Source: a virus | Lineage: Duplodnaviria; Heunggongvirae; Uroviricota; Caudoviricetes | Reading direction: 5' to 3' (one strand) | DNA length: 30,598 bases | IMG/VR virus record: IMGVR_UViG_638341084_000008 | Shown here: piece by piece, positions 5,200-13,361 of the stretch | Layout of the letters: each line of letters starts with the position of its first letter | Numbering within the stretch: position 1 is the first letter of the stretch | The notes under the pieces: generated by a model | The model's input: only the letters and a program-made list of their open reading frames with translations | The model's database searches: none | What the model was told of the DNA's origin: nothing | Translations under genes and position numbers: made by a program

Positions 5200-5410
5200 G
5201 TCCTCCCGGTGGGGTGGCCTGCCACGGGGCGGGAGCGTCGCGGAAAAAGGCTAGTTTTTGCATTTTTATTGGCCACCATCATCTTTGCATCTTATTGATT
5301 ATTAATGGTTATTTGTTTTTTGCATGTCGAATTGAGTGTTTTTTGTTCGACATCGAACGCGTTTTCTTAAAGTTGTTCGCACGATGCATGTTTAAAGCTC
5401 TCCGGAGGAA
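5200..5410. other. Candidate cos region (cosN-like GC-rich core plus small-terminase binding repeats)
   Basis: It lies between Rz and the small terminase gene, where cos sits in lambdoid phages. ACGGGGCGGGAGCGTCGCGG (about 5224-5243) resembles the lambda cohesive-end region. Three TTTGCAT repeats (about 5257, 5284, 5318) and a palindrome ATGTCGAA..TTCGACAT (5333-5363) follow. Confidence 0.4.
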
Positions 5411-5412
5411 AT

Positions 5413-5904
5413 ATGGATCATGAGTTGAAAAACCTGGTGCTGAATATTAATCAACTGGCGGCTTTATCTGGTCTGCACCGCCAGACTGTCGTGGCAAGAC
5501 TGAAAAACATTCGTCCCGCTGGTGGACATGACAAACTCAAGCTATACCGGTTGACCGATATTCTGACTGAATTTATGGGGTTACCACCGCCGGTTGCTGA
5601 GGGCGAAATGGATCCACATGAACGCAAAGCCTGGTATCAGTCTGAACGTGAGCGTCTTAAGTTCGAACAGGAAACGGCACAACTCATTCCGGCCAGTGAT
5701 GTCAGACGGGAGTTTGCCATCTGGGCAAAAGCGGTCGTGCAGGTGCTGGAGACATTACCGGATATTCTGGAACGTGACTGCGGCCTGCAGCCTGCCGCTG
5801 TGAGCCGTGTTCAGTCCATTATTGATGATCTGCGCGATCAGATAGCCCTGCGGGTGACCGAAGCAGGTGCGGATGATGAGGAGGAATTACAGCAGGAGGA
5901 GTAA
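5413..5904 (+). CDS. Terminase small subunit (Nu1-like)
   Basis: 163-aa protein with an N-terminal HTH-like segment (LAALSGLHRQTVVARL) and an acidic C-terminus. Its stop overlaps the large-subunit start (TAATG). Confidence 0.8.
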   Translation: MDHELKNLVLNINQLAALSGLHRQTVVARLKNIRPAGGHDKLKLYRLTDILTEFMGLPPPVAEGEMDPHERKAWYQSERERLKFEQETAQLIPASDVRREFAIWAKAVVQVLETLPDILERDCGLQPAAVSRVQSIIDDLRDQIALRVTEAGADDEEELQQEE

Positions 5905-8006: not shown

Positions 8007-8215
8007 ACCAGAATGATATCGAAGCCATGATTCAGCGTTATACGGAAGCTGAAATGGCGGTGCTGGACGGAAAATCCGTCACCTTTAATGGTCAGCAGAT
8101 GACCATGGAAAACTTATCTGAGATCCGGCAGGGACGGCAGGAGTGGGAGCGCCGCCTTGCGGCTCTGATTACACGACGACGGGGGCATCCCGGGTACCGG
8201 CTGGCGAGGTTCTGA
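8003..8215 (+). CDS. W: Head-tail joining protein W
   Basis: About 70 aa; the C-terminal ...RRRGHPGYRLARF resembles lambda gpW (...QRRRGPAGFYV). GGAGG lies 6 nt upstream of the ATG at 8003. Confidence 0.75.
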   Translation: MNQNDIEAMIQRYTEAEMAVLDGKSVTFNGQQMTMENLSEIRQGRQEWERRLAALITRRRGHPGYRLARF

Positions 8216-9723
8216 TGGCAATTCTTGATGATGTGATTGGCGTTTTTTCACCAGGATGGAAAGCGGCAAGGCTGCGTTCCCGTGCGGTGATCCAGGCTTA
8301 TGAGGCCGTAAAAACGACGCGGACACACAAAGCCCGGCGGGAGAACCGAACTGCCGACCAGTTAAGCCAGTACGGGGCCGTGTCGTTACGTGAGCAGGCC
8401 CGTTACCTTGATAACAACCACGATCTGGTTATTGGTGTATTTGACAAGCTGGAAGAACGGGTGGTGGGGAAAAACGGGATTATTGTCGAGCCACATCCGG
8501 TATTACGCAATGGGGCCATTGCCCGTGATCTGGCAGCGGAGATACGCACCCGATGGAGTGAATGGTCTGTCAGTCCGGAAGTCACCGGGCAGTTTACCCG
8601 TCCGATGCTGGAACGTCTGATGCTGCGTACCTGGCTGCGCGATGGTGAGGTGTTTGCCCAGATGGTTTCCGGGCGCATAAACAGCCTGACGCCTTCTGCC
8701 GGTGTTCATTTCTGGCTGGAGGCGCTCGAGCCGGACTTTATTCCCATGACCAGTGATGAGAGCAACAGGCTGAATCAGGGCGTGTTTGTTGATGACTGGG
8801 GGCGTCCCGAAAAATATCTGGTGTATAAAAGCCGTCCCGTATCCGGGCGGCAGATGGAAACCAAAGAAGTGGATGCAGAGCGAATGCTGCATCTTAAATT
8901 TGTTCGCCGTCTGCACCAGATGCGCGGGACGTCTTTGTTGTCCGGTGTGCTGATCCGCCTCAGTGCCCTGAAAGAGTATGAAGATTCTGAGCTGACTGCA
9001 GCAAGGATCGCCGCTGCTCTGGGGATGTACATCCGGAAAGGCGACGGGCAGAGCTATGAACCGGATGGTAATGGCAGCAAGGAGAATGAACGCGAGCTTA
9101 CCATTCAGCCAGGCATTATTTACGACGATCTGAAACCCGGCGAAGAAATCGGAATGGTGAAGTCGGATCGTCCCAATCCTAACCTGGAAACTTTTCGTAA
9201 TGGTCAGTTGCGTGCCGTGGCGGCGGGCAGTCGTCTGAGTTTTTCCAGTACGGCACGCAACTATAACGGCACTTACAGCGCCCAGCGTCAGGAACTGGTT
9301 GAGTCTACTGATGGCTACCTGATCCTGCAGGACTGGTTTATTGGTGCCGTCACCCGTCCGATGTATCGTGCCTGGCTGAAACAGGCTGTGGCATCCGGTG
9401 TTATCAGGCTACCCCGCGATCTTGACCGTTCTTCACTGTATACCGCGGTGTATTTCGGACCAGTGATGCCGTGGATTGACCCTGTTAAGGAGGCTGAGGC
9501 CTGGAAAATCCAGATTCGTGGTGGAGCGGCGACAGAATCAGACTGGGTACGTGCTGGTGGTCGTAATCCGGATGATGTCAAACGTCGGCGCAAGGCCGAA
9601 ATTGATGAAAACCGCAAGCTGGATCTGGTATTTGATACCGATCCGGCCAGTGATAAAGGAGGCAGCAGTGCCGCAACGAAACGACAGGAGCCGCAGCACA
9701 CCGACGACCAGTCCGAAGAATAA
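8215..9723 (+). CDS. Portal protein (gpB-like)
   Basis: About 500 aa, placed after W. Start ATG at 8215 overlaps the W stop (TGATG). The track's longer ORF from 8143 is an upstream extension. Confidence 0.9.
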   Translation: MAILDDVIGVFSPGWKAARLRSRAVIQAYEAVKTTRTHKARRENRTADQLSQYGAVSLREQARYLDNNHDLVIGVFDKLEERVVGKNGIIVEPHPVLRNGAIARDLAAEIRTRWSEWSVSPEVTGQFTRPMLERLMLRTWLRDGEVFAQMVSGRINSLTPSAGVHFWLEALEPDFIPMTSDESNRLNQGVFVDDWGRPEKYLVYKSRPVSGRQMETKEVDAERMLHLKFVRRLHQMRGTSLLSGVLIRLSALKEYEDSELTAARIAAALGMYIRKGDGQSYEPDGNGSKENERELTIQPGIIYDDLKPGEEIGMVKSDRPNPNLETFRNGQLRAVAAGSRLSFSSTARNYNGTYSAQRQELVESTDGYLILQDWFIGAVTRPMYRAWLKQAVASGVIRLPRDLDRSSLYTAVYFGPVMPWIDPVKEAEAWKIQIRGGAATESDWVRAGGRNPDDVKRRRKAEIDENRKLDLVFDTDPASDKGGSSAATKRQEPQHTDDQSEE

Positions 9724-9736
9724 TTCCTGGTTCAGG

Positions 9737-11695
9737 ATGCAGGCTGGTCACCAGAGTGACGCGGATATTTATATTTATGACGAGATTGGTTTCTGGGGTG
9801 TTACAGCGAAGCAGTTTATCAGTGATCTGAATGCACTGGGCGATATCACCCACATTAATCTTCATATTAATTCACCGGGTGGCGATGTCTTTGAAGGCAT
9901 CGCCATTTTTAATGCACTGAAAACACATGGTGCGTCCATTACCGTTTATGTCGACGGTGTGGCGGCGTCAATGGCGTCGGTCATTGCGATGGTGGGAAAC
10001 CCGGTCATTATGCCGGAAAACACTTTCATGATGATTCATAAACCATTTGGCTTTACGGGCGGTGATGCGGAGGACATGCGCACCTATGCCGACCTGCTCG
10101 ATAAGGTTGAGGCGGTTCTGTTACCCGCTTATGCACAGAAAACCGGGAAAACCACCGATGAAATTGCTGCCATGCTGGCGGATGAGACCTGGATGTCCGG
10201 TGCCGAATGTCTGGCACATGGATTTGCTGATCAGGTAACGCCAGCCGTTAAGGCAATGGCATGTATTCAGTCAAAACGTACAGAGGAATTTAAAAAGATG
10301 CCGGAATCCATTCGAAACATGATTACTCCGCCACGCAACAGTGCTCCACGCGTACAGGATAATGAACCTGTAGCCTCCCGGACGCCAGTGCAGGCAGCAG
10401 CACCTGTGGTGGATGAAAACAGTATCCGTGCGCAGGTACTGGCAGAGCAAAAAGCGCGTGTAAACGGTATTAATGATTTGTTTGCCATGTTTGGCGGGCG
10501 TTATCAGACGCTGCAGGCTCAGTGTCTTGCCGATCCTGAATGTTCGCTGGAGCAAGCCCGCGAAAAGCTGTTGAACGAGATGGGGCGCGAGTCCACGCCA
10601 TCCAATAAAAATACCCCGGCTCATATTTATGCCGGTAACGGTAATTTTGTGGGGGACGGGATCCGCCAGGCGCTGATGGCGCGTGCCGGATTTGAAAAAA
10701 CCGAACGTGATAATGTCTACAACGGGATGACCCTGCGTGAATATGCTCGTATGTCACTGACTGAACGGGGGATTGGGGTTTCCAGTTATAACCCGATGCA
10801 GATGGTCGGTGCGGCGTTCACACACAGTACGTCTGACTTCGGTAATATTCTGCTGGATGTTGCGAACAAAGCCATTCTGCAGGGCTGGGAAGATGCCCCT
10901 GAAAGCTATGAACAGTGGACGCGGAAAGGTCAGTTGTCTGATTTTAAAATTGCCCATCGTGTGGGTATGGGGGGCTTCAGTGCTCTGCGTCAGGTGCGTG
11001 AAGGGGCGGAATATAAATACGTCACCACCGGAGATAAACAGGCCACTATTGCACTGGCGACCTATGGCGAGCTGTTCAGTATCACCCGTCAGGCCATTAT
11101 CAATGATGATCTGAATATGCTGACCGATGTCCCGATGAAACTGGGCCGTGCGGCGAAATCCACTATTGCCGATCTGGTTTATGCCATTCTGACGTCTAAC
11201 CCGAAAATCTCCACAGATAATGTAAGTCTGTTCGATAAAGCGAAACATGCAAACGTACTGGAGAGCGCTGCAATGGACGTGGCATCGCTGGATAAAGCCC
11301 GCCAGTTGATGCGTGTTCAGAAAGAGGGGGAGCGTCATCTGAATATTCGTCCTGCGTTCGTACTGGTACCAACGGCGATGGAGTCTGTTGCTAACCAGGT
11401 CATTCGCTCCTCAAGTGTCAAGGGGGCTGACATTAACGCCGGTATTATTAACCCGGTGAAAGATTTTGCGACCGTTATTGCAGAGCCTCGTCTTGATGAT
11501 AACAGCCAGACCACCTTCTACCTGGCTGCGTCCAAAGGCTCCGATACGATTGAAGTGGCTTATCTCAACGGTGTGGATACGCCATATATTGATCAGATGG
11601 AGGGCTTCAGTGTGGATGGCGTGACAACGAAAGTGCGTATTGACGCCGGTGTCGCGCCAGTTGATCACCGCGGTCTGGTGAAATGTACGGCGTAA
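9737..11695 (+). CDS. Fused prohead protease (ClpP-like) and major capsid protein
   Basis: The N-terminal part carries a ClpP-type motif (INSPGGDVFEGIAIFNALK). The ORF runs uninterrupted for 652 aa, and the C-terminal part is the size of a major capsid protein. The ATG at 9737 is 14 nt after the portal stop. Confidence 0.75.
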   Translation: MQAGHQSDADIYIYDEIGFWGVTAKQFISDLNALGDITHINLHINSPGGDVFEGIAIFNALKTHGASITVYVDGVAASMASVIAMVGNPVIMPENTFMMIHKPFGFTGGDAEDMRTYADLLDKVEAVLLPAYAQKTGKTTDEIAAMLADETWMSGAECLAHGFADQVTPAVKAMACIQSKRTEEFKKMPESIRNMITPPRNSAPRVQDNEPVASRTPVQAAAPVVDENSIRAQVLAEQKARVNGINDLFAMFGGRYQTLQAQCLADPECSLEQAREKLLNEMGRESTPSNKNTPAHIYAGNGNFVGDGIRQALMARAGFEKTERDNVYNGMTLREYARMSLTERGIGVSSYNPMQMVGAAFTHSTSDFGNILLDVANKAILQGWEDAPESYEQWTRKGQLSDFKIAHRVGMGGFSALRQVREGAEYKYVTTGDKQATIALATYGELFSITRQAIINDDLNMLTDVPMKLGRAAKSTIADLVYAILTSNPKISTDNVSLFDKAKHANVLESAAMDVASLDKARQLMRVQKEGERHLNIRPAFVLVPTAMESVANQVIRSSSVKGADINAGIINPVKDFATVIAEPRLDDNSQTTFYLAASKGSDTIEVAYLNGVDTPYIDQMEGFSVDGVTTKVRIDAGVAPVDHRGLVKCTA

Positions 11696-11718
11696 ACGTC
11701 GCAGACAACAACTCTGAT

Positions 11719-11738
11719 GGCCCGTAAGGGCTTTTTTT
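11719..11738 (+). terminator. Intrinsic terminator after the capsid gene
   Basis: GCCC-GTAA-GGGC hairpin followed by TTTTTTT. The stem is short. Confidence 0.5.
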
Positions 11739-11781
11739 GTACCTGAAATCAGCCCCTGAACGGGGCTGTGCGGAGACAGTT

Positions 11782-12105
11782 ATGGCAAAGAATTTTGTAG
11801 AAGAAGGAAAAACGGTGGCGATTGTTGCCAGTGCAGCCATCAGCAGCGGAGATCTGGTGCAGGTGGGTGATGTTTTTGCGGTGGCGCTGACCGATATTCC
11901 ACAGGGTGAAACAGGCGACGGCATGACCGAAGGTGTGTTTATGCTGCCTAAGCTGAAAACGGATGACATGAAAACGGGTAAGAAGGTTTATCTGAAGTCC
12001 GGAAAAGTTCAGCTGACTAACAGCGGCTCTGATCCGCTGGTCGGGGTTGTCTGGGCAGATGCCGGAACCAGTGCAGAAGAAGTGCCGGTAAAACTCAATG
12101 TCTGA
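11782..12105 (+). CDS. Small head-associated protein (possible decoration or head-stabilisation protein)
   Basis: 107-aa ORF from MAKNFVEEGK, directly after the capsid gene. The function is inferred from position and size only. Confidence 0.55.
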   Translation: MAKNFVEEGKTVAIVASAAISSGDLVQVGDVFAVALTDIPQGETGDGMTEGVFMLPKLKTDDMKTGKKVYLKSGKVQLTNSGSDPLVGVVWADAGTSAEEVPVKLNV

Positions 12106-12373
12106 TCCCTTTTCCCGGCTGGCAGCGCGTATGGATGCGATCACGGTCAGAAAGATGGGAAAGACAGCCTCGATTAATGATGTCGATATGGCTGTGATCC
12201 CGGGCGAAACACTGGCAGAACTGAATGCTCTGTCCGGACCTGCGGTCTCTCTGGTGGTGTTTTCTTCGGGATACCGCCCACGGCGCGGGGATCGCGTTGT
12301 TTATGACGGACAACAATGGACGGTCACACGGCATGAACGCTTTAACGGTAAGCCAATGATCTTTATTGAGTAA
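12098..12373 (+). CDS. Head-tail connector / head completion protein
   Basis: 91-aa ORF whose start overlaps the previous gene's stop. It occupies the position of lambda FI/FII between head and tail genes. Confidence 0.55.
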   Translation: MSDPFSRLAARMDAITVRKMGKTASINDVDMAVIPGETLAELNALSGPAVSLVVFSSGYRPRRGDRVVYDGQQWTVTRHERFNGKPMIFIE

Positions 12374-12384
12374 AGAGGTGTGGG

Positions 12385-12963
12385 ATGAAGGGGCTTGAGA
12401 ATGCCATCCGCAATCTGAACAGCCTTGATACCCGTATGGTGCCACAGGCCAGCGCATGGGCGATAAACCGTGTGGCACAGAAAGCGGTCTCGGTTGCCAC
12501 CCGGCAGGTTGCCGGGAATACCGTTGCGGGAGATAACCAGGTGAAAGGGATCCCCCTGAAACTGGTACGTCAGCGTGTCCGGGTGTTTAAAGCCAGTCCG
12601 TCAGGAAAAATGACGGCCAGGATCCGCGTTAACCGGGGCAATCTGCCCGCCATTAAGCTGGGGACAGCCCGGGTCAGACTGGCCCGGCGTGGTGGAAAAC
12701 TGCAGTACCGTGGCAGTGTGCTGAAGGTGGGTAAATATCTTTTCCGGGATGCGTTTATTCAGCAACTGGCGAATGGTCGCTGGCATGTGATGCGGCGTAT
12801 TGATGGCAAAAATCGTTACCCCATTGATGTGGTGAAAATCCCGCTTTCCGGACCGCTGACACAGGCATTTGAAGATGCCCGCGACCGCATCATTGCTGCG
12901 GAAATGCCGAAACAGCTGGGGTATGCACTGAAACAACAACTGAGGTTATGGCTGACCCGATGA
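12385..12963 (+). CDS. Z: Tail completion protein Z-like
   Basis: 192-aa ORF immediately upstream of U, as Z is in lambda. Assignment is by position and size. Confidence 0.65.
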   Translation: MKGLENAIRNLNSLDTRMVPQASAWAINRVAQKAVSVATRQVAGNTVAGDNQVKGIPLKLVRQRVRVFKASPSGKMTARIRVNRGNLPAIKLGTARVRLARRGGKLQYRGSVLKVGKYLFRDAFIQQLANGRWHVMRRIDGKNRYPIDVVKIPLSGPLTQAFEDARDRIIAAEMPKQLGYALKQQLRLWLTR

Positions 12964-13361
12964 ACCGACATACACAAATCCGCCAGGTCGTACTGGCACG
13001 CCTTCGGGANCAGTGTGGAGACAGCGCCACGTTTTTTGACGGGCTTCCGGCATTTGTTGATGCGCAGGAACTGCCTGCCGTGGCGGTGTGGCTGAGTGAT
13101 GCTCAGTACACCGGAAAAATGACGGATGAAGATGACTGGCAGGCTGTTCTGCATATTGCTGTCTTCATCCGGGCACAGGCACCGGATTCAGAGCTGGATA
13201 TGTGGATGGAGAGCACCATTTTCCCGGCCCTGAATGATGTACCGGCACTTTCCGGACTCATCGACACCCTGATCCCACTCGGTTTTAACTATCAACGTGA
13301 TAATGAGATGGCCACCTGGGCGATGGCGGAAATCACGTACCAGATCACGTACACGAATTAA
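12948..13361 (+). CDS. U: Tail terminator protein U
   Basis: Strong match to lambda gpU from memory (ATFFDGLPAFVDAQELPAVAVWLSDAQYTGK...WQAVLHIAVFIRAQAPDSELDMWMES...ITYQITY). Contains one N at 13010. Confidence 0.85.
   Translation: MADPMNRHTQIRQVVLARLRXQCGDSATFFDGLPAFVDAQELPAVAVWLSDAQYTGKMTDEDDWQAVLHIAVFIRAQAPDSELDMWMESTIFPALNDVPALSGLIDTLIPLGFNYQRDNEMATWAMAEITYQITYTN

Follow-up and report, generated by a model that had tools for sequence, protein, structure and literature searches.

The window analyzed here is a stretch of 30,598 nucleotides (nt) from a Caudoviricetes record of IMG/VR (IMGVR_UViG_638341084_000008), in which one reading frame (most likely positions 9668–11695, 675 amino acids, aa) very likely encodes a ClpP-family protease, a linker/scaffolding domain, and an HK97-fold major capsid protein. 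The protease-scaffold-capsid fusion is already known from a precedent in Gifsy-2 and from a curated protein family, and it is very common. The one possibly new point is a start signal inside the gene. A conserved internal ribosome-binding site (GAGGA, followed by an ATG at 10298) is, judging from sequence comparison, probably also read on the same messenger RNA (mRNA), which would yield two primary products from a single frame. All positions are those of the window; the fusion gene and its parts, the portal and cement genes, and the terminator-like hairpin lie on its plus strand.

A protease and a capsid protein in one reading frame

The open reading frame (ORF) at 9737–11695, singled out in a preliminary description of the sequence, begins with ATG and continues through 652 codons without interruption to a TAA at 11693–11695. 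The surrounding frame is open from 9467 onward. Residue numbers below refer to this 652-aa form unless stated otherwise. The preliminary description had read the ORF as a ClpP-type protease, recognized by an INSPGG motif, joined to a protein of capsid size, and had proposed domain searches and structure prediction as checks. Both parts were recovered by Pfam in the same polypeptide, with CLP_protease at residues 23–168 (E = 4.4e-36) and Phage_capsid_4 at residues 354–649 (E = 3.4e-54), and the INSPGG motif lies at residues 44–49 (nt 9866–9883). The predicted structure of the C-terminal half likewise has the fold of an HK97-type capsid protein. The NCBIfam model NF045540 ([quoted passage not shown]) gave 982.6 bits, well above its curated cutoff of 475, and aligned protein residues 9–651 with model positions 2–651 of 652, and PHROG 133 also matched the fusion protein over its full length. 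With a full-length score, a ClpP-related protease carrying its catalytic triad, and an HK97-fold capsid domain in one frame, the window protein is a plain member of NF045540 and PHROG 133 and has no feature that sets it apart from them.

The N-terminal domain (9761–10240) is, by its sequence, an active-looking ClpP-type (S14) protease with an intact triad. Besides the Pfam match (PF00574), it scored 215.8 bits against NF045542 (“head maturation protease, ClpP-related”; cutoff 120). The SppA family reached 22 bits against a cutoff of 155, and ClpP was the best family. Solved ClpP structures align with the protease part (best E = 4e-16), and the GxAASM and MIHxP motifs coincide in these alignments. 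The catalytic residues are encoded at 9968–9970 (Ser78), 10037–10039 (His101), and 10229–10231 (Asp165), and these three columns are invariant in an alignment that extends down to 57% identity.

The fusion is widespread. At the DNA level, the gene is 98–99.5% identical to 16 phage records, including those of the plaque-forming phages mEp460, cdtI, Ayreon, and Tritos, with a value of at least 99% for mEp460, cdtI, and Ayreon. Ayreon forms icosahedral heads of 57 nm. A match was found in 2125 of 5426 complete Escherichia coli genomes (~39%), where the name given by the Prokaryotic Genome Annotation Pipeline (PGAP) is that of the fusion. A search of a species-level genome collection gave 163 confirmed stretches, from which 80 loci were fetched; these represent about 38 genera sampled from Enterobacterales, Pasteurellaceae, Shewanella, Pseudomonas, and others. 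Together with Gifsy-2, mEp213, CF165a, and the window, they form the set of 84 loci (50–99% identity) used for the comparisons below. Both domains are in one intact frame in 79 of the 84 loci, while two loci end at a contig edge and three are N-terminally truncated. Among 1.84 billion cluster representatives, 10,601 are relatives of the scaffold-capsid part, 2,741 of them at E ≤ 1e-30. Most of the best 150 relatives are 620–800 aa long and match from about residue 180–300, which indicates that they are fusions as well.

Two readings that would deprive the fusion of its meaning can be weighed against these data. A mistake in sequencing or assembly might have masked a stop codon or frameshift between adjacent protease and capsid genes, since separate protease and capsid genes are common in other phages and the window contains seven ambiguous bases, though none of them falls within the fusion gene. 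This artefact is effectively refuted and retains next to no probability: the same frame is intact in loci across about 38 genera, the fusion recurs in E. coli genomes by the thousand and in viable phages that were sequenced independently, and a curated full-length family model fits it from end to end. The preliminary description had named a separating stop or frameshift, or a C-terminal half unlike any capsid family, as findings that would count against it; the capsid half matches a capsid family, and no stop or frameshift lies between the parts here or in relatives. The ClpP-like domain could instead be a dead relic that serves as extra scaffold mass, with processing carried out by another host or phage protease. 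No ClpX- or ClpA-type partner is evident for the domain, which speaks in favor of a relic, but this reading is very unlikely in view of the invariant triad columns, the INSPGG and MIHKP motifs that are equally invariant down to 57% identity, and a score well above the NF045542 cutoff. Moreover, the part of the window that runs from the terminase gene to the tail genes contains no other protease gene.

Copies near-identical or 73% identical to the fusion gene also occur in metagenome-assembled genomes labelled Bacillota, ‘Proteobacteria’, and Geobacteraceae (loci L006, L008, and L010). These are probably mis-binned contigs of enterobacterial prophages. The names of the gene in GenBank phage records are inconsistent and include ‘Nu3’, ‘preconnector protease C’, ‘protease C’, ‘head maturation protease’, ‘protease/scaffold protein’, ‘scaffold protein’, ‘Major head protein’, and ‘Major Capsid Protein’. 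In one published survey of capsids, no HK97-fold capsid protein could be obtained for Gifsy-2. Given the mixed names, the practical value of the present finding lies in annotation.

A conserved putative start signal inside the gene

The candidate internal start is the ATG at 10298–10300 (Met188), located 10 nt downstream of a Shine-Dalgarno (SD)-like GAGGA at 10283–10287, whose AGGA core is conserved in 84/84 loci. As inferred from the comparison of loci, it would open a nested in-frame coding sequence at 10298–11695 for a protein of 465 aa (50.7 kDa) that contains the scaffold and capsid parts without the protease. The ATG is followed by CCN, and the resulting Met-Pro is present in 84/84 loci in the midst of a variable linker. 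In nearly every locus, the codon five before this ATG is GAG, CAG, or AAG and is followed by GAN; the synonymous GAA, CAA, and AAA never occur there. The AGGA thereby placed 10 nt before the ATG is kept even in the AT-rich Pasteurellaceae. The exceptions are two loci in which GAGGA is shifted by one codon and one locus with other amino acids, which keeps GGAGA with a shift of one base.

The conserved G of this codon occupies a synonymous site. The third position is G in 83/83 cases in the SD column, compared with fractions of 0.16–0.77 in 20 other conserved Glu/Lys/Gln columns, and a Glu, Lys, or Gln codon preceding GAN elsewhere in these genes ends in G in 247 of 750 cases (33%). For the two other conserved Met columns, an SD-like sequence lies upstream in 1/80 and 0/84 loci, respectively. 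RNA folding was computed in 40-nt windows within 240 nt of the ATG for 42 loci with pairwise identities below 85%. Mean folding energies are −2.6 to −3.8 kcal/mol at −24 to +24 around the ATG at 10298, as opposed to −6 to −10 kcal/mol in nearly all other windows, and the GC content around the ATG is 0.36–0.44 against 0.5–0.6 in the surroundings. The combination of an invariant ATG-CCN, the AGGA, and low structure and GC content bears the marks of a translation initiation region. In addition, three stand-alone homologues (P0137, P0130, and P0152) begin at the Met-Pro, with the N-termini MPKSAKRFFEP, MPPSAKNLFEPQ, and MPIPDN, and Gifsy-2 also has an internal Met-Pro with AGGAG.

Based on these sequence features, many capsid subunits may be made without a protease. 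We lean towards regarding the fusion as a nested in-frame gene pair, in which the 465-aa scaffold-capsid protein would be the main building block and the 675-aa form would supply a smaller number of proteases. An internal promoter in the style of herpesvirus UL26.5 was also considered as a source of the shorter product and was rejected, as no sigma-70-like promoter site was found in 9400–12200. In the literature accessible to us, which did not include the 2010 paper on Gifsy-2, no mention of internal initiation in this gene family was found.

Several points weigh against internal initiation. The internal SD is of moderate strength (AGGA, about −6 kcal/mol, 10-nt spacing) compared with −11.6 kcal/mol for the SD upstream of the full-length gene. 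Fusions at 38–50% identity have Ala, Val, Ile, or Thr before the Pro as often as Met, which suggests that the Met-Pro motif also has a role at the protein level. A universal internal Met is thus not tenable, as the column is often occupied by other residues at this distance, and the nested start would be limited to the clade of at least 50% identity. The stand-alone proteins that begin at Met-Pro could be choices of the gene caller and not truly separate genes, and the 84 loci are related to each other, so that the counts overstate their independence.

These points lend some weight to a pure polyprotein, as implied by the preliminary description, in which the full-length product alone is made and each capsid subunit brings its own protease and scaffold. 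The internal AGGA and ATG would then serve, for example, as a Met-Pro structural or docking motif or as an SD-like pause that lets the protease fold. The single ORF is intact across related loci, the upstream SD is much stronger than the internal one, and distant fusions without the Met still retain a hydrophobic residue before the Pro, pointing to a protein-level role; the accessible papers also give a single gene product and mention no internal start. The pure polyprotein is nonetheless the less probable reading, a possibility of perhaps one in three, because it leaves unexplained why the third position is always G in the SD column when only a third of codons in the same context elsewhere end in G, why the spacing between SD and ATG is correct, why Met is invariant at a position where relatives tolerate Ala, Val, Ile, and Thr, and why the site coincides with a local trough in RNA structure and GC content typical of start sites. 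The internal SD-like element could also drive a dnaX-like programmed frameshift at T-AAA-AAG that releases a protease-only product, and the window sequence GAG GAA TTT AAA AAG ATG does resemble an SD followed by a slippery run. However, AAA-AAG is not conserved (GAC GCT, TCA TCT, and GCC CAC occur in other loci), in contrast to the invariant AGGA and ATG; the heptamer has no A at its first position, the SD spacing of 4 nt is wrong for −1 stimulation, and no conserved alternative-frame ORF downstream was seen in the ORF list of the window. Frameshifting at this site was accordingly rejected as highly improbable, and internal initiation remains the preferred explanation of the conserved signal.

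Start of the full-length gene

The full-length gene probably begins with the GTG at 9668 and encodes 675 aa (73.6 kDa) rather than the 652 aa of the ORF that starts at 9737. The GTG is preceded, after a 5-nt spacer, by the SD sequence AAGGAGG at 9656–9662, which is located inside the end of the portal gene and has a duplex energy of −11.6 kcal/mol. PGAP uses this start for the identical gene in an E. coli locus (L001), and an upstream start is also used in the mEp213 record. By contrast, the ATG at 9737, taken as the gene start in the preliminary description, has no SD sequence upstream, and its column across the 84 loci contains Met in 47, Ile in 25, Leu in 6, Phe in 1, and a gap in 5. Upstream of this ATG there is a near-invariant SW(F/Y) motif within a conserved N-terminal extension. 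The motif lies past the stop codon of the portal gene, and its conservation is therefore not explained by the portal frame. Taken together, the SD sequence, the conserved SW(F/Y), and the non-conserved Met column indicate that the gene most likely spans 9668–11695, consistent with NF045540, and the ATG at 9737 was judged an unlikely start.

Starts of this kind are present in most relatives. Of 79 loci, 61 have a good SD (duplex energy ≤ −6 kcal/mol) in front of a start codon, and the median distance from the best-scoring start to the conserved Trp is 21 codons. GTG is unusually common at this position (43 of the 79). A small hairpin (UCCUG-GUU-CAGGA) at 9725–9737 ends on the A of the ATG at 9737 and is located within the stretch that encodes SWF.

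Linker, scaffold, and capsid domain

The part downstream of the protease was modeled with AlphaFold as residues 188–652 (model numbering 1–465) from an alignment of 57 sequences down to 39% identity, which included relatives at 40–52% identity. The model has a predicted local distance difference test (pLDDT) of 75.3 and a predicted template modeling score (pTM) of 0.62. With a shallow alignment (residues 176–652, 18 sequences of at least 72% identity), the pLDDT was 35 and the three-helix region described below was alone confident. A Foldseek search of the PDB returned 172 matches at E ≤ 1e-3, and the 50 matches listed were all encapsulins or phage capsid proteins. In a separate comparison with PDB profiles, the capsid part alone matched the Mu GpT-type capsid proteins 8rkx and 8rkc (E = 3e-4) and 9jod (E = 9e-3). 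On the basis of the model, the C-terminal half is an HK97-fold major capsid protein; the domain extends over 10640–11692 (model residues 115–465), of which Phage_capsid_4 covers 10796–11683.

The capsid domain is preceded by three segments. The first is a linker rich in Pro, Ala, Thr, and Gln (10298–10408), which is predicted to be disordered (pLDDT < 50 at model residues 1–37) and differs in length among relatives. It is followed by a putative delta-like scaffolding domain of about 60 residues (10415–10588), with three helices at model residues 40–63, 70–78, and 84–97 and a pLDDT of about 80–87. Between these helices and the capsid fold, there is a disordered junction, STPSNKNTPAHIYAGN, at 10592–10639 (pLDDT < 50 at model residues 99–114). 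The preliminary description had assigned the role of a built-in scaffold to the protease and linker. The model supports a built-in scaffold segment, although the scaffold is most likely the helical segment of about 100 residues between the linker and the capsid domain and not the protease itself. The maturation cleavage zone is most likely the disordered junction, corresponding to approximately residues 286–301 of the 652-aa form. A cut after Lys104 (model numbering) would leave 361 aa with a computed mass of 39.3 kDa.

The joint of the fusion can be placed by comparison with phages in which the parts are separate. In tblastn searches, separate phage proteases match residues 1 to ~200 and separate capsid genes match residues ~201 to 649, which places the joint near residue 200.

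Comparison with known systems

Among the nearest counterparts is the Salmonella phage Gifsy-2 (STM1033 region). The window protein is 70% identical to its fusion protein over the full length and about 85–90% across the capsid domain, and the two share the order of protease, scaffold, and capsid as well as their neighbors, with a portal gene of the lambda family before the fusion and DUF2190 and Gifsy-2-family genes after it. Gifsy-2 differs in the sequence and length of the linker, in a 7-residue insertion at the scaffold/capsid junction, in its annotated length (696 aa compared with 675 aa), and in having no Met at the position corresponding to the ATG at 9737. A 2010 study by Effantin et al. 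(Virology 402:355) reportedly dealt with the ‘tripartite capsid gene’ of Gifsy-2; it is said to have described a ClpP-like N-terminus and a middle domain of some 200 residues that may act as a scaffold, and to have modeled Gifsy-2 capsids with the HK97 capsid protein and lambda gpD. Capsids of Gifsy-2 have been reported to show T=7 geometry with decoration trimers on the 3-fold axes, of which the cement gene is what is seen in the window.

An independent account of a protease-scaffold-capsid gene (693 aa) in Pseudomonas phages is given in the paper on phage MD8. MD8 gp5 and the 693-aa protein of CF165a combine a protease, a scaffold, and an HK97/Mu-like capsid domain in one gene, as in the window, and the CF165a protein, which is of the MD8 type, is 56% identical to the window protein over its full length. 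They differ in the Pseudomonas host, in a longer Ala/Pro-rich linker, and in an upstream start codon that is ATG instead of GTG. For both the Gifsy-2 gene and MD8 gp5, the cited interpretation is a precursor that processes itself and brings its own scaffold. The preliminary description had inferred the same for the window gene, and its interpretation is supported, although the feature is already known.

The window gene also shares the layout of HK97 gp5, in which a delta-like segment of about 100 aa directly precedes the capsid fold; in the window, this segment contains the three predicted helices at model residues 40–97. In HK97, however, the protease is encoded by a separate gene of the S78 family (gp4), whereas the window protease is ClpP-type (S14) and in frame with the capsid protein. 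The HK97 shell is crosslinked and has no cement protein, whereas the window has a DUF2190 cement gene. A further variant is found in Dulem virus 34, which has the same scaffold-capsid gene (Phage_capsid_4) and a DUF2190 gene (locus L004, 4892–5254) but carries a separate S78-type protease gene upstream in place of the fused ClpP-type domain. The N-terminus of its capsid protein (MKKKW...) showed no alignment with the Met-Pro motif and is of no help in placing the ancestral start.

Nested frames of protease and scaffold are known from lambda C/Nu3 and herpesvirus UL26/UL26.5, and the signature at 10283–10300 in the window fits this arrangement. The lambda scaffold product is reportedly made from an internal in-frame start, as described by Shaw and Murialdo in 1980. 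Lambda otherwise has an SppA/S49 protease, a separate capsid gene E, and a decoration protein gpD unrelated to DUF2190, none of which is a feature of the window, and the candidate nested product of the window would, unlike that of lambda, include the capsid protein itself. The herpesviruses differ in using an internal promoter, of which no sign was seen in 9400–12200.

Neighboring genes and other features of the window

The gene order in the window is that of a Gifsy-2-type lambdoid head module: terminase, a small head-tail joining gene, a lambda-family portal, the fusion, a DUF2190 cement gene, a Gifsy-2-family gene (PF13856), and gpZ/U/V tail genes. The whole window is 96–98% identical to the lambdoid E. 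coli phages PhiR55_1, mEp460, Ayreon, and phi458. The portal gene (8215–9723; Phage_portal_2, E = 6e-82), annotated by PGAP on the identical gene in the E. coli locus mentioned above, overlaps the probable start of the fusion gene with its last 56 nt. Downstream of the fusion gene, a terminator-like hairpin (GGCCC-GUAA-GGGCU) followed by a run of seven T is located at 11719–11739, and the mEp213 record has a rho-independent terminator at the same place. The hairpin lies between the capsid and cement genes and may reduce downstream expression relative to the capsid protein. The cement gene (DUF2190/Phage_cement_2, 11773–12105; PF09956, E = 1e-20) probably encodes a trimeric decoration protein unrelated to lambda gpD. 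A DUF2190 gene is also next after the capsid-coding gene in Gifsy-2, mEp213, CF165a, and Dulem virus 34, and thus accompanies this capsid family even where the protease is a separate S78-type gene.

Window position 5388 is approximately where the genome records of Ayreon and mEp460 start, and the window therefore probably has its cos site and small terminase gene (DUF1441, 5413–5904) at about 5388–5904. The seven ambiguous bases of the window are at positions 2470, 2498, 2532, 2558, 2561, 13010, and 19549, all outside the fusion gene; one of them results in an X in a gpU-like ORF (12948–13361).

Proposed assembly and significance

By analogy with Gifsy-2, HK97, and lambda, the capsid domain would form a T=7 procapsid that encloses the N-terminal parts. 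The bulk of the building blocks would be the 465-aa protein from the internal start, which consists of a scaffold segment of about 104 residues and the capsid domain, whereas proteases would come in smaller numbers from the full-length protein, similar to the lambda C/Nu3 pair. The protease would then remove itself, the linker, and the scaffold, probably by cutting at about residues 286–301 of the 652-aa form, leaving a mature capsid subunit of about 39 kDa. That the mature capsid protein is released by autoproteolysis is inferred here from the intact triad and from the analogy to Gifsy-2. The shell would subsequently expand and be cemented by the DUF2190 protein.

The fusion as such matters little, as it was already described in 2010, is covered by a curated NCBI family of its own, and is present in about 39% of complete E. 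coli genomes. The internal start, if true, would explain how the ratio of protease to capsid protein is set from a single ORF, and would add a third example of nested protease and scaffold products beside those of lambda and the herpesviruses. The nested pair would then merge the logic of lambda C/Nu3 and that of HK97 gp5 in one reading frame.

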